A stretch of 64,000 nt of DNA from Ruminococcus sp. GTDB taxonomy: Bacteria > Bacillota > Clostridia > Oscillospirales > Acutalibacteraceae. The notes below the pieces were generated by a model. It was not told the DNA's origin, did no database searches, and saw only the letters and a list, made by a program, of their open reading frames with translations. The position numbers and the translations under genes are program-made. The stretch's first letter is position 1, and the number at the start of each line of letters is the position of its first letter. Below are positions 22,520-54,820 of this stretch, piece by piece. Where the stretch lies: assembly GCA_045541275.1 (NCBI GenBank), contig JAZQIX010000014.1, positions 32,877 to 96,876 on the forward strand. The letters run 5' to 3'.

Positions 22520-22596
22520 CCGGGTGTAGCGCAGTTTGGTAGCGCGCTTGAATGGGGTTCAAGAGGCCGCAGGTTCGACTCCTGTCACTCGGACCA
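22520..22596 (+). tRNA. tRNA-Pro (anticodon GGG)
   Basis: Hand-folded cloverleaf. Acceptor CCGGGTG/CACTCGG (C1-G72), D arm GCGC-AGTTTGGTA-GCGC, anticodon arm CTTGA-AT GGG GT-TCAAG, T arm GCAGG-TTCGACT-CCTGT, discriminator A and encoded CCA. Confidence 0.9.
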
Positions 22597-29096: not shown

Positions 29097-29117
29097 AAGA
29101 AAGATGAGGTTAATATT

Positions 29118-30213: not shown

Positions 30214-30573
30214 ATGGGAAGGCCAAAAGGTGGAACAAATAAGAATCATAGCAAAGAAGAAAAATTAGCATTGGTAAAACGAAATTTAGCAGGAGAACGA
30301 GCATCAGATTTGGAAAGAGAAACAGGAATATACCACGCTCAAATACACAAATGGACACAACAGTATTTAGAGGGTGGTGAAGCTGCACTTGTTAACAAGC
30401 GCAAACCGGGTAACCCGCTTGCAAAATATGCGCGTAAAAAAGAACTCACTCCAACAGAGCAATTAGAATACAAAATTGCACTATTAGAGCGAGAACTTCT
30501 AAAGAAAAACGGAGAAATTGTACGATTAAAAAAATTCATAGAACTGGAAAGGGGCGATGCCAAAAGAAAGTGA
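30214..30573 (+). CDS. IS3-family transposase OrfA (HTH + leucine zipper)
   Basis: 119 aa with an HTH (ERETGIYHAQIHKWTQQY) and a coiled-coil tail. The slippery site A_AAA_AAA lies in LKKF. Confidence 0.85.
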   Translation: MGRPKGGTNKNHSKEEKLALVKRNLAGERASDLERETGIYHAQIHKWTQQYLEGGEAALVNKRKPGNPLAKYARKKELTPTEQLEYKIALLERELLKKNGEIVRLKKFIELERGDAKRK

Positions 30574-31472
30574 TTCAGCAAATATATGCTTGTGTTGAAC
30601 GCGAAAGTGAACACCACTCAGTAAAGGAATTATGCGATGTGTATGAAGTATCCCGTTCAGGATATTACAAATGGTTAAAACGGAAAGGAACTTTAAATCG
30701 TTATGAACAGCAACAGCAAGAACTGGATTACTATGTTGCAGATGTTCATTCTCATTATCCGTCGCAAGGATACAGAAGTATAGCAGATACATTGTTAAAT
30801 GAATATGGTTGGGTAGTATCCGATGTTTCTGTGTTTAAATCTATGAGGCGGTTAGGAATTAGTGGATTTATTAGAAAGCAAAAGAATTCGGAACAAGACG
30901 GTTCTGGAAATGAACACGATAGATTCCCTAATATTCTCAACCGAAATTTTTATTCAGCCAAACCGATGCAAAAGATTGTCACCGATGTTACATACATTAA
31001 AAACAAAGGAAAGTGGTATTATCTTGCATGTTATCTGGATTTGTTTAACAATGAAATTGTGGATTGGGAATTAAGTGATACCTTTGACAATTTTCTTGTA
31101 ATGAAACCTGCCAAAAGAATTCTCGAAAAAGCAAAAAGTACTGCAACCCCTATCCTTTTGCACAGCGATCAGGGCGTACAGTACTCATCAGCAGGTTATT
31201 GCAACCTGCTTAAATCTTACAATACTATTCAAAGCATGTCAAGAGCAGGAAATCCGAGAGACAATGCTGTAATTGAATCTTTCTTTGGTAGATTCAAAGA
31301 TGTTATGTCATCACACTTCCAATATTGGAAGTGTGATGACATACACAAAGTTGTTGCCGACACTATTCATTACTTCAATTACATACTCCTGTTCGTAAAC
31401 TTAAAAGAAAGCCGCCAGTCCAATACAGAATTGAACTGGCAGCTTGATCTTTTGCTTTTTTGTGTCTACTAA
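30570..31472 (+). CDS. IS3-family transposase OrfB (DDE/rve integrase core), probably made as an OrfAB -1 frameshift fusion; 3' end possibly frameshifted
   Basis: rve motifs (VTDVTYI, HSDQGVQYSS, GNPRDNAVIESFF). The -1 frame is open from the A7 run. The conserved IS3 C-terminal tail (HTPVRKLKRKPPVQYRIELAA*) is found in another frame from about 31382. Confidence 0.75.
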   Translation: MIQQIYACVERESEHHSVKELCDVYEVSRSGYYKWLKRKGTLNRYEQQQQELDYYVADVHSHYPSQGYRSIADTLLNEYGWVVSDVSVFKSMRRLGISGFIRKQKNSEQDGSGNEHDRFPNILNRNFYSAKPMQKIVTDVTYIKNKGKWYYLACYLDLFNNEIVDWELSDTFDNFLVMKPAKRILEKAKSTATPILLHSDQGVQYSSAGYCNLLKSYNTIQSMSRAGNPRDNAVIESFFGRFKDVMSSHFQYWKCDDIHKVVADTIHYFNYILLFVNLKESRQSNTELNWQLDLLLFCVY

Positions 31473-32639: not shown

Positions 32640-33503
32640 TTAATCCATATGAATATTTATTAATCTACACCCATCAATAGTAAATGTAATTTTCTTCAAT
32701 TCACACAAATCTTCACATAACATACAAAGAATTCTTTCGTTTGTAGGATCTATTTTTTCGCCGACAACAACTCCAACAATAGCATCGTTACTACCATCAA
32801 TATCTAAATTCTTTTCGTTATATGCAAGATAGCGAAATTCTTTTTCACCTTTCCAATCATCCAATTTATGAAAATAATTATACTTAGTAAAATCGCAATT
32901 TTCTTTTATAAATGTATGGCACTGTATTTTAAATCCAGAGCTCTCTGGTGCTACCCCTAACAAGCTATCAATTTCCTTTATTGTTTCGTCGCTAAATTTG
33001 TATGTGAATAATTGATCCTTATACACAACATTCGAATGGTATAGGAGAAGCGAATTCAATCTTCTTTGAATTAAACGAGATAATTTATTTTTATCATACA
33101 CTAAACACACACCAGTATTATTGTTTGCATATTGTGCCCACATTCTAGGCATTGCAAATCCCCTTCCAGAATAATCTGAATAACGTGTACGTGAATCAAC
33201 ATTATTTTCATTAAGTTCATTGTCCATCGAAAAACACAACAATTGAAGATCCCCTGAGTAATTATCATTAAAAGAATGTATCCACTCAATTAGACGACGA
33301 TGTGTTTTTTGATTCATAGTCTCAAAATTAATTTTTAATTTAGACTCTAACGTATCGTTGGTGCGACTAATTTTCGAAAATCTTAATGAATTTCCATCTA
33401 AAATTTTAAACGCTTTATCTATATTTGTATAATGGTATAAATATTTACCAGTGTCAAAGTTATCGTCAAAAGCTGTAAGCCAAGCCATATTATCTATTAT
33501 CAT
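32640..33503 (-). CDS. DUF2971-family protein
   Basis: YLYHYTNIDKAFKILDGNSLRFSKISRTNDTLES matches the DUF2971 N-terminal signature. Start trimmed to the ATG at 33503 (AGAGGTG RBS). Confidence 0.6.
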   Translation of the reverse strand: MIIDNMAWLTAFDDNFDTGKYLYHYTNIDKAFKILDGNSLRFSKISRTNDTLESKLKINFETMNQKTHRRLIEWIHSFNDNYSGDLQLLCFSMDNELNENNVDSRTRYSDYSGRGFAMPRMWAQYANNNTGVCLVYDKNKLSRLIQRRLNSLLLYHSNVVYKDQLFTYKFSDETIKEIDSLLGVAPESSGFKIQCHTFIKENCDFTKYNYFHKLDDWKGEKEFRYLAYNEKNLDIDGSNDAIVGVVVGEKIDPTNERILCMLCEDLCELKKITFTIDGCRLINIHMD

Positions 33504-33656
33504 AAATTCACCTCTAATATATTGTATGTAAAACGCAAAAGATCTATTGAGCAAATATTATTAATGCAATATGTTTTTTACTGCTCTAAATGATATTTGA
33601 TATTTACGAGTTCATTATTAATAATTGGTAACCACAAATAACAAAGATAAGCTATC

Positions 33657-35354
33657 CTATGTTTTTGTTTGCCTTCGCATTGATTCTACTGCTGCACCAA
33701 TTAGATTGGGTACATTTTCTGATGCCCATGCATCCCAGAACTTAATTGTTGCACTATTAGGCTCAGGATTAGGCTTTTTTATAAGTATTCTACTAGGCAG
33801 CAGACAAGAATCACCCACTACTAAAGCTTCTCCTACATCAAGGATAGGCAACAGATCGCCAAAATTACCAATGCTATCAGGCAAAAGTCTTTTTATAACA
33901 TTTTGATCATCTGAATTGGTTAACCTCATTGCAACATAGTTACTACTTTGACTTAAAACAGTCCTGTCCACCTCAGATGGTCTCTGTGTAATAACAACAA
34001 GACCAACACCATATTTTCTTCCTTCTTTTGCAATTCTTTCGAAGCTCTGCAAACTCATTGATTCCATACCTGCATTAACATTTTGAGGGATATACAAATG
34101 AGCTTCATCGCAGAACAATGCAATTGGATGTATTTTTTCTTTTTCTATCCATTGCTGAACAGAGAATACAATTCGAGCAATAAGTGAAACGACCAGAGGC
34201 AATATGTCAGATGGCACTTCAGAAAAATCAATGATTTTTATTCCACCACCTCCAGATGCCGGTAGCATTAACTTTTCACATAATACACTCATATAGTCAT
34301 ACTTTAGCAAATTACAATCCTGAGAAAACATAAAGTTCAATCTTTTGTCGCTAGTTTTATTTTCTAACCTCTGAATAAATCTTGACAACACCCCATTATA
34401 GTCTCCCTTTTTAAGTTTTCCGCTTGATCCTGTAACCATTTCTGTATTAAACTCGTTAAATTTACTAATAACTGCAGGAATACTATAGGGGACCGGACAA
34501 TCGATTGTGATATTATCTAATATATCATCCATACCATTTTCGGCTAAAAATTCATTTTTCTTTTCCAAAACTGTTTTGCTAAAAATCATTGCCTGATTTG
34601 GAGCGTTATTATCTCCTCTGTCCAGCATCATTGACATCATCTCTTCATATGTCAACAACCAATATGGCAAGAATAAGACCTCATCAAAATAAATATCGCA
34701 TGGTCCCGCAATTCTATAATGCTTGATGTTTTCACCTATAATAGGTACATACTCCCCGTGTATATCAAATACAATTGCATTTGCAGATTTTAACAGAGCA
34801 GCTTGTTCGATAATTGTTGCAACTGTACATGACTTACCGGATCCTGTACTACCTACAACCACAGCATGCTTTTGAAAAAATTTATTCCCATCTAAATATG
34901 CATTTGCATGTTTACTCAATGCATAAGTTCCTATATTAAGTGGCTCTACTCCTTGTTGCGCAGTATTTGACAAGACACCCATAAAGTTTGCTAAATCATC
35001 ATCGTTCATTATATAACATTCTGAACTGATTTCAGGAACAGATTCTAAAGTTCTTTTAAAAACATTTTTGGCTGTACCTTCTTTGTCTAAAAGAGTACCA
35101 ATCAAATTAACCTTCACTATATCTTCTGTTGAAAATTCTTCGTCACTATCTATAAGCTCGTTATATTTTCTAACAATTTTAACGACCATACCTATAAGTG
35201 TTTGACGCTCCTTCGAAGCTTTTATAACAACAAGATTGTTAACTTTCACACTAGATAAAACTACCTCATTCTCAACATTTATTACCACACTAGCAGTATC
35301 AACAGCTTGCACTACACCTATACGTGAATTCTCTTCAAAACTAAATATTGACAT
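33657..35354 (-). CDS. herA: HerA-like (DUF87) ATPase/helicase of a SIR2-HerA defence pair
   Basis: Walker A VVGSTGSGKSCTV, Walker B IALFCDEAHLYIP, VVITQRPSEVD. ATG at 35354 is 6 nt after GGAGG, and the SIR2 stop TAG lies within the RBS. Confidence 0.8.
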   Translation of the reverse strand: MSIFSFEENSRIGVVQAVDTASVVINVENEVVLSSVKVNNLVVIKASKERQTLIGMVVKIVRKYNELIDSDEEFSTEDIVKVNLIGTLLDKEGTAKNVFKRTLESVPEISSECYIMNDDDLANFMGVLSNTAQQGVEPLNIGTYALSKHANAYLDGNKFFQKHAVVVGSTGSGKSCTVATIIEQAALLKSANAIVFDIHGEYVPIIGENIKHYRIAGPCDIYFDEVLFLPYWLLTYEEMMSMMLDRGDNNAPNQAMIFSKTVLEKKNEFLAENGMDDILDNITIDCPVPYSIPAVISKFNEFNTEMVTGSSGKLKKGDYNGVLSRFIQRLENKTSDKRLNFMFSQDCNLLKYDYMSVLCEKLMLPASGGGGIKIIDFSEVPSDILPLVVSLIARIVFSVQQWIEKEKIHPIALFCDEAHLYIPQNVNAGMESMSLQSFERIAKEGRKYGVGLVVITQRPSEVDRTVLSQSSNYVAMRLTNSDDQNVIKRLLPDSIGNFGDLLPILDVGEALVVGDSCLLPSRILIKKPNPEPNSATIKFWDAWASENVPNLIGAAVESMRRQTKT

Positions 35355-35364
35355 AACCAACCTC

Positions 35365-36354
35365 CTAAATAATCTTATTGAACCCTTCTATTGTCCAATA
35401 AACACCTTCTATAACAGTATCTGTCTTGTTAATAATGAATCGTGTTTGATTCTCTCCGCCGCTAATTACAACAGCATGTTTTTTACTATTACTAACTATC
35501 ATATCAAGTGCACTATCCGAAAGTTCTTTTGTGACAACAACAATGGGAACTCCTAACTTTATGCGAGAAATAATTTTACCTTGTATCTGGCTATCATTAA
35601 AGCCATAACCAATACAAAGGTAATTATTAGCTTTATCAATCAAGGTATCAGTGTTATGTAATATATCTCTATTAGTCGTTGTATTTAATATCGCTTCATA
35701 CTTATTTGTTCCTGGTGTAATTATCTCAGGCATAAATCCAATTGGAATATTCATCTGCAATGGTATTGATACACTTTCCTTTGTTTTTTCATCAACAAAA
35801 GAATCTAAGGAACCATGCACCTTCAATAAATTAACTATATTTCTTTCTCTTAACTGAGATATCTTTGATTTTTTGTAATACATTCCTGTATATCTGTTAT
35901 CGACTTGTGCATTACATCTATCACAGCAATATTCAATGTATCTATCGTAGTTTGTTGTAATAATATTAAGATTGTTGCTACTGGTTCTGAGCAACTTTTT
36001 AATCAAATCTGAAAATGGTAAATCATAACCAAACAAAACTTTCTCTCTAAACACCTTTAAATCAGCATCACTAATCAATTGCCATGTTGATCTTTTTATA
36101 TCATTTAACAAACTCTCACTCAAATTAATAGATGTAAGTGCTTTTTCTAAATCTTCACCTTCTCTTAACCTTTTCGAAACCTTAATCCAATCAGCATCTT
36201 CGAAATACTTATCTTCCAAATTATCCAATAAATATTGTGCTAACTCCTTCATTCCCGGAATCCCAACAGGAATAGAAGCACCCGTTCCTACAAGCATCAA
36301 AGGTACATCGGATAGGTATTCCTGAATAATCTTATAAATCTCTTCTTTATTCAT
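35365..36354 (-). CDS. SIR2-like (SIR2_2) NADase-type effector protein
   Basis: LMLVGTGASIPVGIPGM, IITTNYDRYIE and KVHGS are SIR2_2 hallmarks. Start trimmed to the ATG at 36354 (MNKEEIYK). Confidence 0.75.
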   Translation of the reverse strand: MNKEEIYKIIQEYLSDVPLMLVGTGASIPVGIPGMKELAQYLLDNLEDKYFEDADWIKVSKRLREGEDLEKALTSINLSESLLNDIKRSTWQLISDADLKVFREKVLFGYDLPFSDLIKKLLRTSSNNLNIITTNYDRYIEYCCDRCNAQVDNRYTGMYYKKSKISQLRERNIVNLLKVHGSLDSFVDEKTKESVSIPLQMNIPIGFMPEIITPGTNKYEAILNTTTNRDILHNTDTLIDKANNYLCIGYGFNDSQIQGKIISRIKLGVPIVVVTKELSDSALDMIVSNSKKHAVVISGGENQTRFIINKTDTVIEGVYWTIEGFNKII

Positions 36355-36424
36355 ATAAAACAACCTTTCAAAAGCAAGCACAATAATAGTGCTTGCTTTA
36401 TATATTCGTATTATTAACAAACAC

Positions 36425-36450
36425 CTTACAATAACTATTTATTATTGTAA
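36425..36450. repeat. lox/dif-like palindromic site A (CTTACAATAA-CTATTTA-TTATTGTAA)
   Basis: 26/26 identical to the reverse complement of site B. It lies 33 bp upstream of the 36483 start. Confidence 0.8.
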
Positions 36451-36482
36451 AAAACAAAAGAATGCTAATGGAGGATCAAATA

Positions 36483-37865
36483 ATGGAAACATCCTTAAGT
36501 AATTATAATCCTAGTGTTAATATATTAACCAATGCAGAAATCCTCAACACAGATAAATATAAGAAAAAAATTAGCTATCTAACTGTTCAAAGTAGTTTAT
36601 TTGCGGACTCGACATTTAAGAACTGCGATATTGTGGGATGTAAATTATATAATAGTAAATTCAGTAATGTTTCCCTAGACAATGCAGACATTATTTCGCT
36701 TCAAATATCAAATTGTTTATTTATAAATGTGAGTTTTGATGGAACATGTATAGAAGACATAGATTTTAGAAACTGTGTCTTTGATAGTTGTAGTTTTAAA
36801 AATTTCTCTATGAAAAATTGCTGTTTTTCAGGATGTGTGTTTTATAAGTTTAAACCTTCTTGCTGTTTGTGTGAATTAAATAACTATGTAGAGTGTACAT
36901 TCACGGACAGTACTTTTTCAAGTTCATTTCACTATCAAATTTTTAGTGATTGTACATTTAATAACACAAGTGTTGATTTAGAATTATTGGGATATAATTA
37001 TGGCTTGCTATCCAATAGTCAGATTATTATAGAAAACGGCAACATAAATGATTCTACGAACAGAATTGAGTATTTATATAACAATTATTTAGAACAAAAC
37101 TTATACGCTAATGCATTCATATTAAAAATTAATTTTGAATATGGTGAAAATCCATCTGTGTTATTATTATGGACTGATTTTTTGGAAATTATATTGAAAA
37201 ACGACATAATAATTAAATCCAATGAAATAGTTTTTATTAAAAACCTAATTTCTCTTTTCTCAAGAAAAAAACAGATTGCTCCCTTATTATTGTTTGTTTT
37301 GAATAACAAACTTATAAATACGCTTAATAAGTTTAATGTTGAAAATTCTAAAACTAGAGATGATATAATTCTGCTTGTAAACAATATTTATTTCGAATTC
37401 AAGAGCATTATCCAGGAGTTTTCTACACTAAAAGATAATTACTATTTTGAGAATAAGAGACTATTAATTGAAATAAAATACGTAGAAAAGCCTGAAAAAG
37501 ATTTGAGTCAAATATTAAATCAATTTGGCCTGGGTCACTGTAAACAAATAAAAACTGAGGCTGGTTCTTTTTATGAGTGGATTTCCTGTCCAGATAACAT
37601 GATAAAATGTTTGGAAGTTTTTTTGATGTTGTTGGGAATAGCCGCACCTATTGTTTATGATTCAATTAAAACTAAGAAAAAAGAAAAAGCAAAAAAGCCG
37701 ACAAATTTCTTGGATTTGTCAGAAAATACATCTATAAATGTAACTATCAATGTTACAATTAATAATGGATGTCAAATTTTAAATAATTGTAACTTTGTAG
37801 AAAACAACTTTTACGGCTATAACAATAAAAATGTTCAAAAAGTTAAGATATCTGTCGAGAAATAA
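36483..37865 (+). CDS. pentapeptide-repeat protein with C-terminal TM helix
   Basis: A run of A(D/N)LxX-type pentapeptides (FKNCDIVGCKLYNSKFSNVSLDNADIISLQISNCLFINVSFDGTCIEDIDFRNCVFDSCSFKNFSMKNCCFSGCVF) and a TM segment FLMLLGIAAPIVY followed by a Lys-rich stretch. ATG at 36483 is 7 nt after GGAGGA. Confidence 0.7.
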   Translation: METSLSNYNPSVNILTNAEILNTDKYKKKISYLTVQSSLFADSTFKNCDIVGCKLYNSKFSNVSLDNADIISLQISNCLFINVSFDGTCIEDIDFRNCVFDSCSFKNFSMKNCCFSGCVFYKFKPSCCLCELNNYVECTFTDSTFSSSFHYQIFSDCTFNNTSVDLELLGYNYGLLSNSQIIIENGNINDSTNRIEYLYNNYLEQNLYANAFILKINFEYGENPSVLLLWTDFLEIILKNDIIIKSNEIVFIKNLISLFSRKKQIAPLLLFVLNNKLINTLNKFNVENSKTRDDIILLVNNIYFEFKSIIQEFSTLKDNYYFENKRLLIEIKYVEKPEKDLSQILNQFGLGHCKQIKTEAGSFYEWISCPDNMIKCLEVFLMLLGIAAPIVYDSIKTKKKEKAKKPTNFLDLSENTSINVTINVTINNGCQILNNCNFVENNFYGYNNKNVQKVKISVEK

Positions 37866-38964
37866 ACTCAAGTAAAGCAGTCAACGCATTTCCAATAATA
37901 TGAGGATCTAACGATAAATTAATTCTAAACGAACAATTAGGATTCCCATTAAGAAAACCAGGAATGATTGAAACTAAAGTCTCCTTTATCATTTCTTTAA
38001 TAAAGTTTATTGAATCCAAGGGGATATCGGGAATGTAAATTGTTGCATAAGATCCTAAAGAATGAATTGTGTCTATTTTGGCAAATGGGTATTTCTTTAG
38101 CACTTCGATTATTATGGATTTGCTTTGTTCAAACCATATTTTGGCCCTTCGTTTACAAAGATCATAATTTGGGCTCAAAAAATGCTCTATAGCATTTATA
38201 CTACTTCCAGGTAAAGCTCCACCTATTACATCAATCCATTGTTCCAAAAAATCATCATTAGACTTGTCACAAATGATGGCTGAAAACTTAAATCCATTAA
38301 AAAACAAAGATTTGTGAGGACTATATATGCCAAATAAGTATTTATTTGGTTGCAAATCTCTAATAGTTTCAAAACCATTTATATTCAAGCTCTCATCAAT
38401 AATTACTAATCTTTTGTTGCTTGTTAATGTGTTGATACTTTGAATTGTCGATTTCCTCAACATACAGTTAGTAGAATATATTGGAGATGTAACCCATATA
38501 GCATCTGTCTCATTTGTTTTTAAGATTTCAGAAGGAAACATACAATTGGGTTCATATGAGATTTTTACAATCTCAAACTCGGCTAATTTACATGTTTCTT
38601 CTACAGAAAAATACGATGGTTGAAGAATGAATAGGCGACGATATTTATTCAGTTTTAGATAGTTAATGATATTTACTATTGCCAACGAACTATTAGGCAA
38701 AAGCATACACATCTGTGTCTTAGTCCGTTTTCCAGTAAGTTTTTCTATGATTGCTTCCCTTATCTCAATAGGAATATCATATGTATATACATAATCAAAA
38801 AGTCTTGATATAGATTGTGGTGTTAGTTCTTTTAACATCATATCCGTATATTCGTTTGATGGATTCCAGTAAGACAAGTTTGTAACAGGTTTGTTAGTAT
38901 GCAAAGATATATCTTTCTCAATTTCAAATATATTGTCCATAAAAAATATATCGTCAATAAACAT
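37843..38964 (-). CDS. PLP-dependent aminotransferase-fold protein (divergent)
   Basis: The order of class I/II aminotransferase landmarks is preserved: WVTSPIYSTN (NPxNPTG position), VIIDESLN (DEAY position), YSPHKSLFFNGFKFS (SxSK Lys loop) and CSFRINLS (C-terminal Arg). Each landmark is degenerate. Confidence 0.45.
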   Translation of the reverse strand: MFIDDIFFMDNIFEIEKDISLHTNKPVTNLSYWNPSNEYTDMMLKELTPQSISRLFDYVYTYDIPIEIREAIIEKLTGKRTKTQMCMLLPNSSLAIVNIINYLKLNKYRRLFILQPSYFSVEETCKLAEFEIVKISYEPNCMFPSEILKTNETDAIWVTSPIYSTNCMLRKSTIQSINTLTSNKRLVIIDESLNINGFETIRDLQPNKYLFGIYSPHKSLFFNGFKFSAIICDKSNDDFLEQWIDVIGGALPGSSINAIEHFLSPNYDLCKRRAKIWFEQSKSIIIEVLKKYPFAKIDTIHSLGSYATIYIPDIPLDSINFIKEMIKETLVSIIPGFLNGNPNCSFRINLSLDPHIIGNALTALLEFISRQIS

Positions 38965-38992
38965 TATACATTAAACCTTTCAATAATAATCC

Positions 38993-39018
38993 TTACAATA
39001 ATAAATAGTTATTGTAAG
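38993..39018. repeat. lox/dif-like palindromic site B (TTACAATAA-TAAATAG-TTATTGTAAG)
   Basis: Reverse complement of site A, 26/26. It lies 27-28 bp upstream of the 38964 start on the minus strand. Confidence 0.8.
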
Positions 39019-39237
39019 TTGTTTTCATAAATTATCAACTTTTGGTATAAAAAATAATGTAAAAAAGCACCACTCATAATAATTCCTAACCACAACTACC
39101 AACAATATTCAACAAATAAAAAATTTTCAACAAAAACTCGAAATTCAATTTTATGGATTACGAGTCTTTTCTTTTTTTAACAATGATAAACACGCATCTG
39201 AACTCATTAACCTATCCTCTCTCCTTTTACCATTACG

Positions 39238-39269
39238 TATAAACTTACAATAACAATAAATTATTGTAT
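39238..39269. repeat. lox/dif-like palindromic site C (CTTACAATAA-CAATAAA-TTATTGTATG core)
   Basis: 32/32 identical to the reverse complement of site D. It lies 66 bp upstream of the 39336 start. Confidence 0.8.
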
Positions 39270-39335
39270 GATAATAAGGGATCAAAAATATCATATACGA
39301 GCAGTTGTAAAAAGGGAAAGGAACAATGATTCACA

Positions 39336-40433
39336 ATGAATAAGATGGACATATATGAACGAGCAGTTCAAAGTATTATAGACTATAGTTCTGGAGATGT
39401 AACATCATGCTTGATGAAAGAATATGCGATTAAAGGAATGTATAATCTGCTATCTTGCTTGGATAACCTTGGTATGTGTGGGAAAGAGACAAAGTTAATT
39501 GCATTGCCCGATTTTACTTTTTCAAGAAACGATAAAAGATTTAACTCTTTTTTTCCTTACGGCTCTATAATACATATCGATACATCTGGTGAAATGTTTA
39601 TACCGCTGGGATTTAGACCCAATTGTTGTGGTATCACGATGCTTGAATTAACGAATACAGATGCAAACATTGATAAAATTAAAACAAATCTATACACTCT
39701 TGCAAAACTTGATTTTGGTATTGCAAGCGACGATTTGAATAGAGGCAATCATTTCATTGGTATATATGAAAATCAATCTACATCTCAAATGTATGCAATT
39801 ATTCATGGGTCATTTGACTTTGTTAAATCGGGACATAACGACATCCCCGGATTGTATATTGATAAAACAAATTATTGGGACGATAAATTATGTATATATA
39901 GTGAAAACGATGTCTACTTTCCTTATCTCGTTAGTGACAATGCGGTTCACTATTACAAGGCATACTTACAACATGAGCAGACAACAAAAGAACTACGTAG
40001 TAAAATTGCTTACCATCTGTTCCCGAATAGCAAAATTATTTTTAATGAAACGCATGAGGGGTTTTACCAACATAACACCATTACACTTGGAGCATATATA
40101 AAAAACACTTCTTTTACTGCACCCATTATGCTTTCAGCAGAATCAGATTTATCCATAATTAATGTAAATCGTCCGTTAACGGATATTTCATCAAACATAT
40201 ACGCCTGTCCACATGGAGGAGGTTATTCCTTAAAATATATAGTTAATGGACTGTATAATATTGACACTCATATTTATAAGTTGCAGTTTGAAAACAAGGC
40301 TGTGATGGAGACAACTGATATTCGCAAACTAATATATGATTATAGAACTAATACTGATCTTATTTGGTGTAAACATCATGCCTTCGGTAATATTACAAAT
40401 AAATACTCTACTGTATACAATCTTAAACTATAA
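39336..40433 (+). CDS. divergent RtcB-like (RNA ligase fold) protein
   Basis: RtcB motifs occur in the right order: ALPDFTFS (MPDxH position, His lost), RPNCCGIT (DxGCG), NRGNHFIGIY (GNHFIE), IIHGSFDF (HSGSRG), YQHNT (HHNY), ACPHGGGYS (HGAGR nucleophile His). Confidence 0.5.
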   Translation: MNKMDIYERAVQSIIDYSSGDVTSCLMKEYAIKGMYNLLSCLDNLGMCGKETKLIALPDFTFSRNDKRFNSFFPYGSIIHIDTSGEMFIPLGFRPNCCGITMLELTNTDANIDKIKTNLYTLAKLDFGIASDDLNRGNHFIGIYENQSTSQMYAIIHGSFDFVKSGHNDIPGLYIDKTNYWDDKLCIYSENDVYFPYLVSDNAVHYYKAYLQHEQTTKELRSKIAYHLFPNSKIIFNETHEGFYQHNTITLGAYIKNTSFTAPIMLSAESDLSIINVNRPLTDISSNIYACPHGGGYSLKYIVNGLYNIDTHIYKLQFENKAVMETTDIRKLIYDYRTNTDLIWCKHHAFGNITNKYSTVYNLKL

Positions 40434-43058
40434 CATCATCAGAAATGTAGATAACGCCTGTTTGTGATTGATTAAATCATCAATCATATCTACATTTATA
40501 TTGTTTGTAATAGTTTCATAAAGATAGGATTTATATAATTCCGTCATTTCTGCTATGTGATTCTCGGTAGATGATAATGCTTTAACCGCAGCTTTTTTTA
40601 ATTCAAAAAGGTTATATTCTTCGCACAGATCTATGATAGTTTTTAAACGATGTGCAAGATGCAATTTGCTTGCTTGTTTTATACAGAGTTTCAGAATACA
40701 TAATGCTTGTGTTGTTTGGTGAGCAGCCAAAAGTGCATAGGCATAGGTAATGCCTGTAGCAACTTCTTCTTTCTTTAAATTAAGTTGTTGTGCTTTTTTA
40801 TATGCTTCTTCGCCCCAGTATACAGTTTGAGGAATATCATGCATTTTATAATAGATTTGCGAATGCAATTTCATAGAGAATGTAAGGCCTCGTTGAGTGT
40901 TTAGAGATTTCTTTATTTCTATGCTTTTATCATTATACGCAATTGCAACATCATAATCTTCATTTCCCAACGCACATTTACTCAATCGATAATATGCAAA
41001 TGCTCGACGTTTGATGCTGACAAAATATCTTGTGTCCATTAATTGAGTAAGTGTTTGCATAGCGTTTTTGAACAATCCTGCTTTTTCCTCAATTATACAA
41101 ATTCTATGGATAGCTTTAGCCGAAAGATTTGATAAATTATTGCGTATAGCTAAATTGAATATATAATAATAAATTTCAACTGCTATTTTCATTTCACCAA
41201 CGACATAATAAGTTCGTCCAATTATAAAGAGAATTTGTAAATATAAATCTATAGGATAATGCTGATATTCAAAAATATTATCATAAAAATCCTTGAGTAA
41301 ATTTGTAAAATCACATTGAAAGTATCTCAATCTCAAATTCAAGTAATTCCACATATGGTAATCTTCGTTTGATTTGTCAATAATATCTTTTGTTATATTA
41401 ATGTAATTACTCAATAAATCATATTCAGATTTTCTTTCTAATAATATCATCTTTTTGATTAGAATAGATAACGAGTTTCTTTTGTTGAGTTTTTCTCGTT
41501 CTTGAAGAGATTCCAATAACATCACATCGTAGCCTCTGCTCAAAAGAAAATCAAATTTTTCTTTCAAAAGAGCATCATATTCATTACTTCTATTAGTTTT
41601 ACAACACAAATTCATAAGATCTATATATAAAAGTGAGTTTTCACTAGCACACAATTCTATTATATCGAATGCTTCTTCGGGAATTAAATGTAATAAATCT
41701 ACGATGTACTTCTTGTACATATCGTGCAGGACTATTACTTCACCTTCTAATTTTGTCAATCTTTTTTGAGTTAATTTTTCGAGAGCTGATCTATAGCTAT
41801 TTCTTTCTAATAGTTTTATCGGCAATGGAACTCTCGAGAATGCTAAAGAATAGAGCAGAGCTTTTTCTTTGTTTTCCATTAAAGAAATTAACGAATCAAA
41901 ATATGATGATAATCCTTCACAATTAACACACTCAAAGTTTGTTGGCAATATTTCTGCTAGACCCGGTAACCCATCGGATCTTTTTACGATTTCCTCCATT
42001 TCCTCTTCATTAAGAGCTTCATTATAAGATAATGCAATTTCTCTGATATGTTGCGGCGATAGGGGTTCGACATCCACAAATACAATTTTATTATTAACTT
42101 TCAAATCATGAATGTTAAAAATATTAAACCATCCAAGTAAATGCATCTTACTTCGTTCTATCTCGAGTAATTGAATTAATAATTCAATATACTGATTACT
42201 GTTACATTTGTGGATATCATCAATAAAAAACACGCAATCATAATTTGATAGCATAGTTTTAATTATATTAATAAGCGACGCAGTTAGATAATTACCATGA
42301 CTATTTAAATATTCATTTAATTCGTTTCTTTTTAATACACAAGCAAAAAATGTACCAAGTGATTCCAGAAAATTCTTTATTTGACACTCGCCATCTTGCA
42401 TTAATATTCTATGCCAAAATACAAAATACCCTTTGCTGTAATAGTGATGTGCAATGTTTTTTGCGAGTTGTGTTTTGCCAACACAAGATGGACCAACAAG
42501 ATAAAAACAATGTGTGTCAGATTCTAACAATAATTTCTTCTCTATTTTTCTATTAACCAAATTATGATTTGATGGTAAAATGCGAGATGTATATTCTAAT
42601 TCATATGAATGTTCTACGATGTTTAACAAGGTGTAAATGTGGTTTTTTAGCTCGAAAAACAATTGCTCTGTGTCTGTGTGATTAAGGCAAGTTATATACC
42701 TTTCTAACGAGGTTTCCTCTTCCCAAGCTACATTTAGTTTATATTGTTTTGAAATTGATAAAATGTAATCTTTAGTTGCAGGAGTAAGATAGGTATTCGT
42801 CCAAATGTAAAATAAATCAGGTTTTGTGGAAACAGCCCAATTTAACGATTCACATATATTTTTTTGTTTTATTGAAGATTTATGGTTTTTACACTCTACA
42901 ATAACCGTCTTAGATACACCGTTATATTCATATATTGCCACAATATCTTTGCCACGATCCGAACCACCTCTATAGAATTCTATGCTCTTTGGATGGGTTC
43001 TTTCTAAAATTGAAAAAACCAAATTTTCAAATTCATTCCCTTTTTGAGTTGTATTCAT
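40428..43058 (-). CDS. Mrr-like PD-(D/E)xK nuclease + STAND/AAA P-loop NTPase + TPR-like repeats (Avs-like defence protein)
   Basis: N-terminus GNEFENLVFSIL...GGSDRGKDIVA...VIVECKNHK (Mrr_cat pattern). Walker A YLVGPSCVGKTQLA, Walker B CVFFIDDIHK. The C-terminal about 400 aa are helical-repeat/TPR-like. Confidence 0.7.
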   Translation of the reverse strand: MNTTQKGNEFENLVFSILERTHPKSIEFYRGGSDRGKDIVAIYEYNGVSKTVIVECKNHKSSIKQKNICESLNWAVSTKPDLFYIWTNTYLTPATKDYILSISKQYKLNVAWEEETSLERYITCLNHTDTEQLFFELKNHIYTLLNIVEHSYELEYTSRILPSNHNLVNRKIEKKLLLESDTHCFYLVGPSCVGKTQLAKNIAHHYYSKGYFVFWHRILMQDGECQIKNFLESLGTFFACVLKRNELNEYLNSHGNYLTASLINIIKTMLSNYDCVFFIDDIHKCNSNQYIELLIQLLEIERSKMHLLGWFNIFNIHDLKVNNKIVFVDVEPLSPQHIREIALSYNEALNEEEMEEIVKRSDGLPGLAEILPTNFECVNCEGLSSYFDSLISLMENKEKALLYSLAFSRVPLPIKLLERNSYRSALEKLTQKRLTKLEGEVIVLHDMYKKYIVDLLHLIPEEAFDIIELCASENSLLYIDLMNLCCKTNRSNEYDALLKEKFDFLLSRGYDVMLLESLQEREKLNKRNSLSILIKKMILLERKSEYDLLSNYINITKDIIDKSNEDYHMWNYLNLRLRYFQCDFTNLLKDFYDNIFEYQHYPIDLYLQILFIIGRTYYVVGEMKIAVEIYYYIFNLAIRNNLSNLSAKAIHRICIIEEKAGLFKNAMQTLTQLMDTRYFVSIKRRAFAYYRLSKCALGNEDYDVAIAYNDKSIEIKKSLNTQRGLTFSMKLHSQIYYKMHDIPQTVYWGEEAYKKAQQLNLKKEEVATGITYAYALLAAHQTTQALCILKLCIKQASKLHLAHRLKTIIDLCEEYNLFELKKAAVKALSSTENHIAEMTELYKSYLYETITNNINVDMIDDLINHKQALSTFLMML

Positions 43059-43143
43059 AACAAACCTCCTAGGTGTATCATATCTTTTTAAAAAACCTCA
43101 AGTAACATGTATCGGTTATTTGATTATTGCATCCATTATTACA

Positions 43144-43175
43144 ATACAATAATTTATTGTTATTGTAAGTTTATA
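43144..43175. repeat. lox/dif-like palindromic site D
   Basis: Reverse complement of site C, 32/32. It lies 86 bp upstream of the 43058 start (minus) and about 60 bp upstream of the recombinase start (plus). Confidence 0.8.
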
Positions 43176-43236
43176 TTTATACTTACACCTCGAAATTTGA
43201 TAAAATAAGAAAAATAATATTTCAATGAGGTGTATT

Positions 43237-44148
43237 ATGAAAAATTTAAACAATCTAATTACTGAGTTTATTAATATAGCTCAGTCAACTAAAAATCTGT
43301 CTACTAAGACCACTACTGCCTACAAGTCTGATTTACACGATTTTGCAAACTATGTAGAAAGTAAATCAATAGGCGAAGACACAATATTAAATTACATACA
43401 AATACTATCTCAAAAAAGGAAGTTGAAAGATAGCACTATAAACAGAAAGCTCATCGTACTTAAAATGTTTTTTCAATTCTTGCAATCTCATAATTACATC
43501 AAGCAAAACTACTTTACTGCACACAATTTCAAGTTCAAACGAGAACGCAAACTTCCAAAAACGATATCCATAAAAGAGTCAAAAAAGCTTTTATCTTACT
43601 CTACAAATCTAACTATCACAGCAAAAAGTGACTTTGAGAAATGGAAATCTATTCGCAACCTAGCTTTGATTGATATACTAATAAGCACCGGAATTAGAAT
43701 TGCAGAAGCTTCCAATATAATGATGGAGGATATTATCACCTCTGAACACACCATACTAATTCATGGTAAGGGACGAAAGCAAAGGCTAATATACATTTCC
43801 TGTTCTCAAACATGGCAAAACTTAAATTTATGGATAAAATACAGAAACAAGCGAGTAACCACATCAAATAATCTGTTTGTCAACCGATACGGAGAACAAA
43901 TCAGTATTCACGGAATCGAATACATTTACAACTCACTTAAAACGGGAGCAAAAATCAATTTAAACTCAACACCACATTATTTAAGACATACCTTTGCAAC
44001 CAATCTTCTTGCAAATGGTGCTGATCTTCGTTCTGTTCAAGAAATATTAGGTCATAGTAGCGTATCTACAACTGAAATATATACTGAGGTTACTACAAAA
44101 CGAAAGATGCAAGTACTAAATAGATACAACTATAGAAATAAATTATAA
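43237..44148 (+). CDS. XerC/XerD-like tyrosine recombinase (complete catalytic set)
   Basis: [12 protein letters not shown] (R), [10 protein letters not shown] (K), [12 protein letters not shown] (H-x-x-R), [16 protein letters not shown] (H, Y). The start is either 43225 or 43237. Confidence 0.85.
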
Positions 44149-44162
44149 AACATACGGAAGCA

Positions 44163-45092
44163 TTAATCTAATTCTTCTTTATTTTTTATAACAACTACCA
44201 ACTCAGAATACTCTTCTTTAAACTCTTCAAAGCAAGCATTTACATATTCCTTGTTGGGCACAAAATCATTGCCACTGCTTATTACATTAAACAGTTCGAC
44301 ACCACAGGATGTTAAGAAATATGAATCAATTGATATAGTAGGAGCATTATCATTCTGCGCAATAACGAACACCACTGTATCTTTGTTATGCACAACCAGT
44401 GTCTTATCCGCAGAAAAATCAGTTGCAAGCGAATTATCAATAGATAACAATCCTGCTTCAATCAAAGGAATAATGTGAGTTGAATAAACATACCCTTTTT
44501 CGTCAATTATTTTTTTGCTCCTATGGTTCGAATCGTGAAGCTGATAAAAACCATTTGAATTGATAAAATAGCAATCACCGCTTACTAAAACCAATTGACA
44601 CAACTCGTTAAAAATCTCAGCTTCTTTTTGCGAAATATTTCTGATCACCTCTAATGTCCTCAAAGAAACATTGCCGGGATTTATTATTTCTCCGCATAAT
44701 ACCCTGCTCCACAACTTTTGCAACTCTTCATTACTAATACTTCCTACTGCATCAAAGAAGCGCATAATCCAATCAAAATCAACAGGGTTATCTGACACAG
44801 CTTCAACATTTTCCAAATACTCACTTGCAAAGCCTGCTGTTTTCACAAAATTTTTAAGTTTTGCCACCTCATACAAGGTAAAGGTTTGCTGTTCAAGTAA
44901 TTCTTCTTGCTGTCTTTGCCTGTAAATTTCAACATCAACTTCCGCCTTGCCTTTTTTCAGTGTTATGGTCGGCAGATACAATGTTTTAATCACATCTCCT
45001 ACAACATCTATAAGCTTTGCTAACACAGGAGATGCAGCAACAATCGGCAATCCGGTATTAATTAATTCTATTATCTGATTTTGATCAATCAT
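44163..45092 (-). CDS. DUF2806-like protein
   Basis: DFDWIMRFFDAVGSISNEELQKLWSRVLCGEIINPGNVSLRTLEVIRNISQKEAEIFNEL resembles the DUF2806 core recalled from memory. Start trimmed to the ATG at 45092 (GGAGGA RBS). Confidence 0.45.
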   Translation of the reverse strand: MIDQNQIIELINTGLPIVAASPVLAKLIDVVGDVIKTLYLPTITLKKGKAEVDVEIYRQRQQEELLEQQTFTLYEVAKLKNFVKTAGFASEYLENVEAVSDNPVDFDWIMRFFDAVGSISNEELQKLWSRVLCGEIINPGNVSLRTLEVIRNISQKEAEIFNELCQLVLVSGDCYFINSNGFYQLHDSNHRSKKIIDEKGYVYSTHIIPLIEAGLLSIDNSLATDFSADKTLVVHNKDTVVFVIAQNDNAPTISIDSYFLTSCGVELFNVISSGNDFVPNKEYVNACFEEFKEEYSELVVVIKNKEELD

Positions 45093-45167
45093 ATAATCCT
45101 CCAACAAGAACAATCCATACAAATTATATACATAATTTTATCATTCATTGTAGAACTTTTCACCAAT

Positions 45168-45202
45168 TTGGCATAGATGGTAGAAAAAATGGCGTAGTTG
45201 GT
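45168..45202 (-). promoter_or_regulatory. candidate LytTR-type binding site: 14-bp direct repeat with 21-bp phasing
   Basis: Minus strand reads TACCAACTACGCCA-N7-TACCATCTATGCCA (12/14 identical, start-to-start 21 bp), then 16 nt and TACAAT. The 45-nt block resembles 55606-55649 upstream of agrB. Confidence 0.4.
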
Positions 45203-45229
45203 AAATTCTGTCGATTGCTAATAACACAC

Positions 45230-45260
45230 AAAGACTCCATCGGATAGCGATGGAGTCTTT
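45230..45260. terminator. hairpin terminator downstream of the dGTPase-like gene
   Basis: AAAGACTCCATCG-GATA-GCGATGGAGTCTTT. Confidence 0.5.
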
Positions 45261-45359
45261 GTAATATTATTAATCTTTAAGCACACATATTGATAAACGC
45301 AAATTAACTATATTTTATCTGTTAATACTATAAGAGTCCACTTTTGTCCCTTAGCAAAA

Positions 45360-46586
45360 TCAGAAATACTCATGATACTGCAGTTTACCAATCAACTCAT
45401 CATTGATATGCAGATGCTTGCAAATATCAATAAAGTAGTCATCAGACATACTCGCGATAAAATCAGTAACAATTTCATTGGGATCTGCAATGATTGCTCT
45501 TGTAGCCTTATCACGATAGCAATCCCCTAATATGGATTTGTTAAGGTGATGAGCAAACACAGGAGAAGTATAATCCCTGTTTTTAACATCTTCTACCAAT
45601 CGTTCATAAAGTCCATGCATTAATGGTCTGATTATTTCATAATAAGGTACATTCAATTCTGTATCGCCATATATCTTATAGTTTTCTCTGATCAAATCCT
45701 CAAAATCATCAAAAACTTCTTTATCCATATTCAATGTAGGGGAATCAATACTATTCTTAATAATGTTAATAACAATATTGGAAATAATATCACTATTGCT
45801 TGTACCAATTAATCGCTTTTCCTTAAACTCCTCGGGAATCATTCCTGCTCTAAGCATATCCTGTCTATCCTTGCCTGCATAAGCAATTCTGTCGCTTATT
45901 CTTACAACACAGCCTTCAAGGGTATTAGGACGAAGCTTTTTGTGATAATTATTATCCAGATAGCAGTTCTCCAGAATTTCATCAAACTCCTCAAATGTGC
46001 TCAAGCTTGACGGTGAATACTCCTTATATCCTTTTTCACCGTTGTGCGATAAGATTCCGCTAAGTGTCTGCAACGAGAGGTTAGAGTCCAGAATATATCG
46101 AAACAATCTGGCACTATGTACATTATGATTAAAGTATCTTACTGGGTTGCCTGATTCTTCACAACCTTTCTGATAACATTCACTCAGAAACTCCTCTCCT
46201 TTGTGACCGAAAGGAGTGTGCCCCATATCGTGTCCAAGAGCAATTGCTTCGATGAGATCAAGATTGAGCTTCAACGCACGGCCGATTGTTCTGGCAATCT
46301 TTGATACAAACTGAACGTGCAAAGCTCTTCTGGTAATATCATCGTTCTTATAAAACGAAAACACCTGAGTCTTATCAGCATATCGATTGTATAGTGGATT
46401 ATGAATAATACAATCAATATCATAAGAATACTGAGGACGTATAATTCCATGTCTGGGACCTCTGGCCTTTCGTATTGTAGCTTCATCGTTTCTAGATGCA
46501 TAAACAGATAAATTATCGTCACACATCAGGTTAACAGATTCCAAATACTTCTTCTCACTCTCGCTAAAAGAAAAATAATCACTCAT
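45360..46586 (-). CDS. dGTPase-like dNTP triphosphohydrolase (HD domain)
   Basis: ALGHDMGHTPFGHKGEEF HD signature and Dgt-family length and layout (408 aa). Confidence 0.8.
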   Translation of the reverse strand: MSDYFSFSESEKKYLESVNLMCDDNLSVYASRNDEATIRKARGPRHGIIRPQYSYDIDCIIHNPLYNRYADKTQVFSFYKNDDITRRALHVQFVSKIARTIGRALKLNLDLIEAIALGHDMGHTPFGHKGEEFLSECYQKGCEESGNPVRYFNHNVHSARLFRYILDSNLSLQTLSGILSHNGEKGYKEYSPSSLSTFEEFDEILENCYLDNNYHKKLRPNTLEGCVVRISDRIAYAGKDRQDMLRAGMIPEEFKEKRLIGTSNSDIISNIVINIIKNSIDSPTLNMDKEVFDDFEDLIRENYKIYGDTELNVPYYEIIRPLMHGLYERLVEDVKNRDYTSPVFAHHLNKSILGDCYRDKATRAIIADPNEIVTDFIASMSDDYFIDICKHLHINDELIGKLQYHEYF

Positions 46587-47214
46587 TTCGCTTTTCCTTC
46601 TTTCTATTTGGATTTTTTGAAAATTGAATTAAGTTTCTGTGCTTTGTTCTTCTGTGAATATATAGAATATCAGTTAATATAATACAATAATAATCTAAAT
46701 CCACTAGTATTATAATATCACTTTATTCGACAAATAATAGACATTTGGCACTGTTGGTCGATATTTGGCTTTAATTTGTTGCTTTTATCAACAGCACCAC
46801 AGAAACCATGTAATAAAACATAAAGAGATATGGTTAACCACAAAGCTACAATCGAGTTGCTTTTTATTAGTTTTACAATCCTATAGAATCACAACATTAC
46901 CACGGAAAGTTAAGTTATAGTAACAATACGAAGGAATTGCTGTAGTTGATATAAAATACGCTAAGCATGCAGGTCTACCATATGCATCATAACTAAAATC
47001 AAATTTTGTAATCCTCTTATATTCAAAAAACATAAAACCCAACTTGTCTCAACCTTTTGTTTTACCATTCATTTATGACTAGGTAAAAACTCCTTGCCTA
47101 ATTTGGCAAAAACGATACAAAAAAGGTTTGATTCATTAGATTCGCATACAATTCATATTTTCATTCATTCCTTTGTATTACAACATAAAACAATAAAAAT
47201 CCACTGGCTTTGCC

Positions 47215-54640: not shown

Positions 54641-54820
54641 TACAATTCTCCTTTCGACATACAAAATAAAAAGCGAGACATAACTATGCTCAGCACAGTT
54701 GCCCGCTTCTCTTTGGACAACTGCTGTCGTCCATAAATAGAAATTATGCTTTTTTGGGGGTGCTCCTGCCTTGGCGAGAAAATCGTAGAGAAATATACCA
54801 AGGCAGGATTATTAACAATC

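Follow-up and report, generated by a model that had tools for sequence, protein, structure and literature searches.

Two-gene cassettes between inverted Xer-type sites in a Ruminococcus genomic island: a probable recombinase platform for flipping partner genes

We analysed a stretch of 64,000 nucleotides (nt) from a Ruminococcus sp. genome (assembly GCA_045541275.1, contig JAZQIX010000014.1, positions 32,877 to 96,876; hereafter the window), in which four palindromic sites, A to D, bracket two pairs of convergent genes beside a gene for an Xer-family tyrosine recombinase (Table 1). Each gene pair, together with its two inverted sites, is here called a cassette. Comparison with related loci reveals that cassettes of this recombinase family flip, and suggests that flipping may serve to exchange which of two partner genes faces a fixed promoter.

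The sites are 9-7-9 palindromes, extended to 12-7-12, with an inner core of ATAA-N7-TTAT. The pattern TTACAATAA-N7-TTATTGTAA, which occurs at four places in the window and at more than 100 related sites, is a predicted core site of Xer type; with up to 3 mismatches allowed it gave 8 strand-hits where 0.02 were expected in shuffles, and the pattern scan found no fifth copy in the 64-kb window. An earlier note on this DNA had described the four sites as two inverted pairs with pair-specific spacers, and both the pattern scan and a repeat finder agree with it: the reverse complement of 36425-36450 is 38993-39018 (A and B, 26/26, spacers CTATTTA and TAAATAG), and that of 39238-39269 is 43144-43175 (C and D, 32/32, spacers CAATAAA and TTTATTG). 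By the repeat finder, the A/B repeat extends to 32 nt at 97% identity (36419-36450 / 38993-39024) and the C/D repeat to 45 nt at 93% (39238-39282 / 43131-43175). Rfam gave no match within 36000-44300. Neither the fixed spacer between B and C nor the left flank of A has a homologue in any related locus; the spacer was considered as a relic of another recombinase-proximal flank, which we do not claim, as the resemblance consists of a short TTTTGGTA..AAAAT motif only.

In cassette 1, the start codon of the pentapeptide gene lies 32 nt inside site A, with a ribosome binding site (RBS), GGAGG, 8 nt upstream, and that of the aminotransferase-like gene lies 28 nt inside site B; the two partners are co-conserved in two related loci (L028 and L060; labels L001-L129 denote loci gathered for comparison with the window). 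In cassette 2, the protein with fused Mrr-like and STAND domains matches Pfam Mrr_cat, NB-ARC and ATPase_2 as well as PADLOC PDC-M58A, and its gene has an AGGAGG RBS and a start codon 85 nt inside site D. Its partner, of 365 residues, has no Pfam, PADLOC, NCBIfam or PDB sequence match, and a single-sequence AlphaFold model of it was unusable (predicted local distance difference test score, pLDDT, 33). The pair as a whole recurs in L127-L129 at 66-68% identity. Exact-protein look-ups with the window recombinase, the 365-residue protein and a 100%-identical match to the Mrr-STAND protein returned no contigs. The genes of both cassettes converge, with 3' ends overlapping by 23 and 6 nt respectively, and the open reading frame coordinates match those given earlier. 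The accompanying statement that no terminator lies between the genes needs a caveat for cassette 1, where a weak terminator-like hairpin on the minus strand (37698-37722) is found about 120 nt past the stop codon of the aminotransferase-like gene, within the 3' end of the pentapeptide gene. The scan yielded 3 such hairpins against 1.8 expected, and this one, a consensus match only, could limit antisense read-through.

The recombinase gene starts 68 nt beyond site D, close to the roughly 60 bp first reported, and the full R-K-H-R-H-Y set attributed to its product is present as R154, K181, H247, R250, H273 and Y282 in an alignment to XerD (1a0p). With about 300 residues and two domains, an N-terminal SAM-like core-binding domain (PF02899) and a catalytic domain (PF00589), the protein belongs with the simple tyrosine recombinases of the Xer family, and its best PDB matches are XerD, XerA and XerH. 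It differs from XerC and XerD proper, which are defined by an equivalog score, a single dif site per chromosome and dependence on FtsK: its NCBIfam scores are below the equivalog cut-offs (XerC, 222.7 bits against 335.15; XerD, 209.6 bits against 329.6), its sites are paired round cassettes, and one metagenome-assembled genome (MAG) may carry more than one such locus (L013 with L018; L045 with L060). Nor does it qualify as an integron integrase, given a TIGR02249 score of 94.8 bits against a cut-off of 265, sites that are simple palindromes and the lack of an Rfam match. Upstream of the gene, the inverted repeat of the control region folds as RNA at -12.4 kcal/mol (z = -3.4). Because its upstream arm lies upstream of the -10 element, the repeat could work only in transcripts that read through from further upstream, or else as an operator at the DNA level. 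In other clades an equivalent repeat of different sequence is present (CCCCGAAATT / AAATTTCGAGG).

Table 1. Sites, genes and candidate control elements of the two cassettes and the adjoining recombinase, in window coordinates.
Feature	Position	Strand	Sequence, matches and remarks
G+C-rich hairpin	36375..36399	.	AAAGCAAGCAC-N7-GTGCTTGCTTT; just outside site A; terminator-like on both strands
Site A, distal site of cassette 1	36425..36451	.	CTTACAATAA-CTATTTA-TTATTGTAAA
Cassette 1 arm 1, pentapeptide-repeat protein (cluster c13)	36483..37865	+	Pfam Pentapeptide
Cassette 1 arm 2, pyridoxal phosphate (PLP) aminotransferase-like protein (cluster c12)	37843..38964	-	Pfam Aminotran_1_2, NCBIfam
Site B, partner of A	38992..39018	.	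CTTACAATAA-TAAATAG-TTATTGTAAG; spacer is the reverse complement of the A spacer
Candidate promoter into cassette 1	39011..39038	-	TTGATA-16-TACAAT; consensus scans, 10/12; score 10
Inter-cassette fixed spacer (B-C), 225 bp	39019..39243	.	between the two cassettes
Site C, distal site of cassette 2	39244..39270	.	CTTACAATAA-CAATAAA-TTATTGTATG
Cassette 2 arm 1, 365-aa protein without detectable family	39336..40433	+	
Cassette 2 arm 2, fusion of an Mrr-like nuclease domain and a STAND/AAA NTPase, 876 aa	40428..43058	-	
Site D, recombinase-proximal, partner of C	43143..43169	.	AATACAATAA-TTTATTG-TTATTGTAAG
Fixed control region between D and recombinase	43170..43236	.	
Candidate cassette-facing promoter, weak	-35 at 43203-43198, -10 at 43181-43176	-	TTATCA-16-TATAAA (-35 TTATCA, -10 TATAAA); window's clade
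Inverted repeat ACACCTC / GAGGTGT	43185-43191 / 43227-43233	.	brackets recombinase promoter, covers recombinase RBS
Recombinase promoter, extended -10	43198-43206	+	TGATAAAAT; predicted; TGnTAAAAT conserved in all clades
Xer-family tyrosine recombinase, 303 aa	43237..44148	+	Pfam SAM_1 and Phage_integrase

The comparison set comprised about 125 related loci, most of them in MAGs of Ruminococcus, Acutalibacteraceae and other Clostridia from animal guts; 7 came from exact-protein look-ups, 80 from reference genomes and 20 from metagenomes. The recombinase family is large, with relatives at 57-98% identity (67-95% among the top 120 matches), and a metagenome scan with the window recombinase returned only relatives of at most 70% identity. 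In loci with sufficient sequence, one site is found some 95-100 nt before the start codon of the recombinase gene, and its partner 1.6-7 kb further upstream. A typical locus has one cassette, the window two in tandem. No neighbouring gene is universally conserved on either side of the platform, and there is thus no obvious accessory factor. In certain 'locked' derivatives (L065 7700-9930, also L093 and L073), the proximal site is kept and no distal site is present within 10 kb.

Across these loci we identified 57 site pairs with exactly reverse-complementary spacers, representing 21 spacer types. When sites were detected by their arms only, 55 of 67 adjacent pairs were perfect, against 3.9% for random inter-locus pairs, and the imperfect ones are weak matches or neighbours from different cassettes, such as B and C in the window. 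Homologous cassettes can carry different spacers, and in these both ends have changed together (L015, L053 and L062; L018 and L066; L038 and L046) - the covariation expected if two sites must recombine with each other. Loci binned to the same MAG also carry different spacers, as do the two cassettes of the window.

The nearest cultured relative is found on plasmid NZ_CP010977.1 of Paenibacillus sp. IHBB 10380 (L126, 6768-11300), where a recombinase of 46% identity accompanies a perfect 30-nt inverted repeat, CCTAATAA-CTATGAA-TTATTTGG plus 7 nt, with its copies at about 5762-5791 and 9328-9357 of the plasmid record. The repeat encloses a convergent pair, a STAND-like ATPase and a 359-residue protein, with the RBS in the inner arm. 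This cassette lies downstream of the recombinase, the stop codon of which falls within the outer arm; the strain, being cultured, offers an experimentally tractable if more distant relative of the same design.

Cassette interiors were compared all-against-all after orienting each locus on its recombinase. Opposite-strand homology was detected for L015/L053 (1,838 nt at 92%) and L018/L066 (2,197 nt at 87%, full length), as well as for L038/L046 and L053/L062, and the cassette of L060 is opposite to the window's A/B cassette, at 77% identity and with homology spanning exactly 36425-39019. Compared as proteins, 8 of the 10 recurrent types of gene pair are represented in both orientations. Two further cases combine a flipped junction with zero divergence in the flanking sequence. 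First, L048 and L043 (MAG samples TS20190097 and TS20190116) match at 100.000% along 5,319 nt that run from the site through the recombinase and past it. The two have a 31-nt repeat in common (the site and a few further nt), and the 61 nt that L043 has beyond it correspond, as reverse complement, to the distal cassette end of L048; the repeat is too short for misassembly at k = 141 to be the cause of this junction. Second, in L007 the distal end of the L004 cassette, at the start of a TIR-STAND gene, adjoins the recombinase, the flanks of the two loci being 100% identical. The L007 contig ends exactly 127 nt from the outer edge of the repeat, as expected at a branching de Bruijn vertex with both orientations present, and about 18 of 107 contigs, some of them 20-120 kb long, end 45-270 nt upstream of the recombinase.

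These two cases are essentially direct evidence of flipping, and we conclude that cassettes of this recombinase family flip. The family thus displays two marks of an inversion switch, inverted sites flanking a segment with a recombinase nearby and both orientations in otherwise identical sequence; a third, expression that changes with orientation, is predicted from arms too tight for internal promoters and from a candidate cassette-facing promoter on one side only. The earlier proposals that the cassettes are invertible by the adjacent recombinase, and that their spacers confine recombination to within a pair, are therefore supported, the former by comparison across some 125 loci and the latter by the within-pair complementarity of 21 spacer types; the comparison of homologous islands that had been suggested as a check likewise turned up both orientations, the A/B homologue in L060 included.

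Among the 51 cassettes first examined, 45 have arms that strictly converge, the start codon of each arm lying 5-90 nt inward of its site. The RBS often follows directly after the site, and in L040 the inner arm itself supplies it; this proximity of RBS and start codon to the site leaves promoters no space inside the cassette. The two ends of a cassette often agree exactly in spacer, inner arm and as much as 39 nt of leader, and the outer arms go with the flanks.

The two arms are recurrently occupied by the same partners. An ATP-grasp enzyme is paired with a TPR or STAND protein in 9 loci, an ATP-grasp/radical-SAM fusion with a pentapeptide protein in 7, and a GNAT/SHMT-like protein with an 800-residue protein in 5. 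TIR proteins are the partners of a P-loop protein and, as are proteins of unknown function, of methyltransferase, GT2 or spermidine-synthase-like enzymes; the aminotransferase-like and pentapeptide pair of cassette 1 is another recurrent type. A further pair, found in 4 loci and absent from the window, consists of ThsA (cluster c5) and a TIR protein (cluster c3); in L018, ThsA gives a full-length PADLOC match (E = 7e-143) and its partner has a TIR domain, in agreement with the make-up of Thoeris, ThsA (SIR2-SLOG/STALD) plus a TIR-domain ThsB. Apart from the ThsA/TIR pair and TIR proteins, the pair representatives that were scanned had no convincing PADLOC match. Examples of two-gene pairs without a match are L013 5993-9864, L009 5817-9849, L038 7160-9861 and L079 162-2443, and one pair type among them combines a CAP12-like TIR protein with a GT2 enzyme. 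Such recurrent pairs could be undescribed defence systems, and for the cassettes in general a role in defence is putative.

Taken together, these observations lead us to propose, with a probability of roughly 80%, a site-specific recombination platform on which a dedicated Xer recombinase flips two-armed cassettes, which may give phase variation by promoter swap. The recombinase would act on the 12-7-12 dif/lox-type sites; two inverted sites with identical 7-bp spacers would synapse, strand exchange within the spacer would flip the intervening DNA, and different spacers would keep A/B, C/D and other loci of the genome from recombining together. The cassette would be a promoterless unit of two converging partner genes or operons, with a site in the 5' leader of each. 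A fixed promoter in the recombinase-side flank (for cassette 1, in the flank of B) would read through the site into the facing arm, and the far arm, having no comparable promoter, would meet convergent transcription. A flip would then change which partner is strongly expressed, and hence yield phase-variable immunity in the manner of Mycoplasma Xer1/vpma. In the sequenced orientation, the aminotransferase-like and Mrr-STAND genes would be the promoter-proximal arms.

The flanks of the cassettes are in keeping with such an arrangement. On the recombinase side, the 70 nt from site to recombinase hold the universally conserved extended -10 of the recombinase gene and, on the other strand of about 17 loci, a canonical TTGAAT-17-(TGn)TATAAT that faces the cassette and ends 15 nt short of the site; in L079 and L084 its function is apparently kept despite sequence change (judged by eye), and other clades have TTAACA-18-TATAAA abutting the site. 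Cassette-facing promoter scores in the proximal flank average 9.17 against 8.25 in shuffled sequence, with 19 of 49 reaching at least 9.5, and those in the distal flank 8.02 against 8.17, with 3 of 45 at that level. Of the candidate promoter for cassette 1, the -35 falls in the B flank and the -10 in site B's outer arm. Just outside the distal site, a hairpin of rho-independent type occurs in at least 13 related loci, and the hairpin outside site A would insulate cassette 1 from the SIR2-HerA operon, the start codon of which is only about 20 nt away from it. A promoter scan across the whole window found 48 matches where 49.8 were expected in shuffles; with no enrichment, the window's promoter assignments are candidates only. 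The combination of a fixed promoter on one side, promoterless arms and common leaders would match the logic of Xer1/vpma. Separately, a divergent gene of about 183 codons (N-terminus LDIKELIEEGLGFESGS...) starts 33-36 nt outside the distal site in 11 loci (L028, L045, L046, L048, L049, L051, L052, L056, L059, L060 and L078), so close that its promoter must overlap the site or sit inside the cassette.

The sites do more than bound inversions. In 11 loci, a distal divergent gene (75-98% nt identity) and the recombinase side (84-95%) are conserved up to the sites, and 54 of 55 comparisons of the cassettes between them show no relationship; L049 and L052, which have one spacer in common and flank identities of 97.7% and 95.1%, carry different cargo. 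The homology of the window to a 98%-identical relative, L008, begins exactly at site D. Conserved flanks that reach the sites, with unrelated cassettes between them, indicate that the sites also bound horizontal cassette turnover, and such replacement between genomes had not been considered in the earlier note.

A second palindrome that resembles a recombination site, GGATAA-N7-TTATCC, is also present. Its copies form inverted pairs whose spacers are complementary, nested 9-14 nt inward of the TTACAATAA sites, in L004, L031, L041, L051, L052, L059, L063, L070 and L078. In L031, L059 and L063, a 55-nt block made up of the first site, a 13-nt linker and the second site is invariant at all six ends, and the sequences diverge immediately after it. 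In L127 and L128, the cassette homologous to cassette 2 of the window has the second palindrome alone at its boundaries (L127 50-70 / 3902-3922); L128, recovered from six samples, is a cassette-only contig that ends exactly at the outer edges of the 21-nt repeat, which is shorter than the assembler's k. Only degenerate relics of this second site type are present in the inner flanks of C and D (39271-39286 and 43127-43142). These sites hint at several interoperating families of recombinases and sites.

A rival possibility is that the sites serve mainly to dock and exchange horizontally acquired cassettes, on a one-slot platform resembling an integron or dif module and by a double crossover akin to recombinase-mediated cassette exchange (RMCE), with inversion an unavoidable by-product of no regulatory role and with both arms expressed either way, from the outer-arm TACAAT and flank promoters; the symmetry of the cassette would then serve insertion in either orientation. 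Much of what has been described would suit this explanation: conserved flanks around unrelated cassettes, even where the spacer is shared (L049/L052); homology breakpoints that coincide with sites; arms that are functional partners and would be expected to be co-expressed, such as ThsA and the TIR protein; identical 5' leaders at both ends of many cassettes; and composite end modules common to different cassettes. That Xer sites can work in this way is known from dif modules (PMC13141974). However, same-flank platforms often differ in spacer, which should block site-specific exchange, and the asymmetry between proximal and distal promoters is unexpected if expression does not depend on orientation. 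Searches for a donor vehicle in phage and plasmid databases, PLSDB included, found no family member above 46% identity, and viral contigs gave just 18 single, unpaired matches to the site pattern, with unrelated spacers and at chance level. We therefore regard docking as the principal function as possible but doubtful, while noting that it is compatible with promoter-swap phase variation and does not exclude it.

Several observations nonetheless weigh against the promoter-swap reading, or at least against its strictest form. The arms of a cassette are co-conserved partners, as ThsA and TIR illustrate, and not independent alternatives: the notion of a phase switch between alternative defence genes has thus held up as regards inversion, but not as regards 'alternative'. 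A Thoeris-type system should need both its proteins together, and a strict either/or switch fits it poorly. The expression model draws on consensus promoter matches, which are weak in the window's clade, and the TACAAT of the outer arm might give each arm some transcription irrespective of orientation. In the locked L065, which has lost its distal site, the distal gene has a canonical TTGATT-17-TATAAT promoter of its own, indicating that co-expression of both arms is viable. Homologous recombination between conserved flanks could account equally well for cassette replacement, and flipping of C/D in the window's own strain is extrapolated from the family rather than observed. Flipping may shift the ratio of the partners rather than turn one fully off.

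Two other explanations dispense with the recombinase. The earlier note had offered the alternative that the palindromes are a shared promoter/operator module; in the form considered here they would be nothing else, bound by a dimeric regulator, and the recombinase would be unrelated. Each site does precede a start codon by 28-85 nt, always oriented alike, and the arms hold a -35-like TTACAA and a -10-like TACAAT, but this proposal leaves unexplained the perfect within-pair covariation of a non-palindromic spacer, the fact that the sites are strictly linked, and at a constant spacing, to a single family of recombinases, the opposite cassette orientations in otherwise identical strains, and the homology breakpoints and assembly breaks at sites. 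It is contradicted by the spacer pairing and the flipped homologues, and we consider it very improbable. Just as improbable is the notion that the repeats are transposon-like ends or RecA substrates, for while inverted repeats reach 32-60 nt in some cassettes and the site-cassette-site unit moves between loci, the cassettes lack a transposase, target duplications are absent, crossovers fall only within a 25-nt site that has the Xer-typical ATAA-N7-TTAT core, the L048/L043 repeat (the site plus 4 nt) is too short for efficient RecA recombination, and spacer matching is a hallmark of tyrosine recombinases.

How does the proposed promoter-swap platform relate to known systems? Promoter-swap relatives of Xer1/vpma include Mbr/vsp of M. 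bovis and HvsR/vsa of M. pulmonis. In Mycoplasma agalactiae itself, the Xer1 sites lie in the 5' untranslated region at -1 to -72, and inversion links a silent vpma gene to a unique promoter (PMC2268961). The present loci resemble this system in having an adjacent Xer-like recombinase, sites 5-90 nt upstream of starts and leaders that are often identical, and they may do so in a promoter on one side only, which scans predict in many loci and only weakly in the window's clade. They differ in cargo and layout: vpma is an array of paralogous surface lipoprotein genes with one site type, whereas here the partners are unrelated, co-conserved and of immune type, each site pair has a private spacer, and cassettes are exchanged between genomes.

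In Acinetobacter dif modules, inverse Xer sites with matching spacers have been found experimentally to mediate inversion, excision and module exchange (PMC13141974, PMC6449649). An ATAA-spacer-TTAT core, inverse sites, spacer matching and replacement of modules between backbones are features common to these and to our loci. Yet dif modules have asymmetric XerC/XerD arms and a 6-bp spacer, depend on host XerC/D and reside on Rep_3 plasmids, while the present loci combine palindromic arms and a 7-bp spacer with a single dedicated recombinase encoded on the spot, in the chromosome of Clostridia and, in the window, in an island next to tRNA-Pro; both sites of a cassette moreover share a spacer, favouring flipping of single cassettes, and the cargo is promoterless and two-armed.

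In engineered Cre/lox constructs, namely flip-excision (FLEx) and RMCE, spacer identity decides which sites recombine, and inverted identical sites flip the intervening DNA and allow exchange. Palindromic arms, an asymmetric spacer and independent events by one enzyme at sites with different spacers are likewise found or expected here, although those constructs are 13-8-13 in layout and use a phage P1 enzyme, and the present system is natural with an enzyme of the Xer clade. R64-type shufflons (Rci) and hsdS 'epigenetic invertons' (PMC7672463) also involve an adjacent tyrosine recombinase that inverts conflict-related DNA, but what is inverted there are 3' segments or target-recognition domains within a gene, as opposed to whole genes or operons with sites outside the coding sequence. 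Integrons share the platform of recombinase and promoter with promoterless, exchangeable cassettes, some of them for phage defence; here the enzyme is not IntI, attC hairpins are lacking, each cassette has two inverted sites and there is typically one cassette. By these tests of membership, the system resembles inversion switches, dif modules and integron-like platforms and is a member of none. Full-text literature searches returned no description of such a flippable, replaceable immune-cassette system; small serine-recombinase defence markers (PMC13552941) and gene-altering inversions (PMC9881135) came up and are different things.

The cassettes lie in an island of 30% G+C, at about 22.6-58 kb of the window, in a host of about 44% G+C. 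The tRNA-Pro gene that the island adjoins (22520-22596) marks its left edge and is followed by two integrase-like genes (25716-27209 and 27999-29096), an HD/OB protein gene (29118-30071) and an insertion sequence with an rve transposase (30570-31472). Defence genes are abundant: to the left of the cassettes are PDC-S31/DUF2971 (32640-33554), HerA (33657-35360) and SIR2 (35365-36354), and to the right of the recombinase a DUF2806/Abi-alpha-like gene (44163-45122) and a dGTPase gene (45360-46586). L008 has 28433-30055 (94%) and 43145-46776 (98%) in common with the window, with different content between them. Further right, a 2008-codon open reading frame (48638-54664) is related to an RHS/YD-shell giant protein of L004 (72% nt identity, partial) and is followed by an agr-like quorum-sensing set of AgrB (54964-55545), a GHKL kinase (55652-56977) and a LytTR regulator (56970-57662); L001 and L002 have these same neighbours.

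It may be, with the odds in our view about even, that gut Clostridia and at least one Paenibacillus plasmid carry a natural counterpart of FLEx and RMCE, in which a dedicated Xer-like recombinase, by way of a set of orthogonal spacer variants, flips promoterless two-armed cassettes and exchanges them horizontally, and in which slots for immunity genes are both phase-variable and reloadable. If so, many two-gene defence systems yet to be characterised would be found in the cassettes, such as pentapeptide with ATP-grasp/radical-SAM proteins, STAND NTPases with ATP-grasp enzymes and TIR proteins with glycosyltransferases, and the signature of recombinase and sites would be a simple genomic marker for new defence gene pairs. 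The recurrent assembly breaks at these loci in gut metagenomes would be explained, and the recombinase, compact at 303 residues, would come with a natural set of over 20 spacer variants orthogonal to one another, of interest for genome engineering. It would also raise the question of why partners such as ThsA and TIR are placed so that a flip seems to favour one of them. For the bacteria themselves, two-gene systems held in flippable, replaceable cassettes with a private recombinase would represent a new way of managing immunity, in which a repertoire that turns over rapidly is joined to phase variation, a form of bet-hedging where effectors are costly or toxic.

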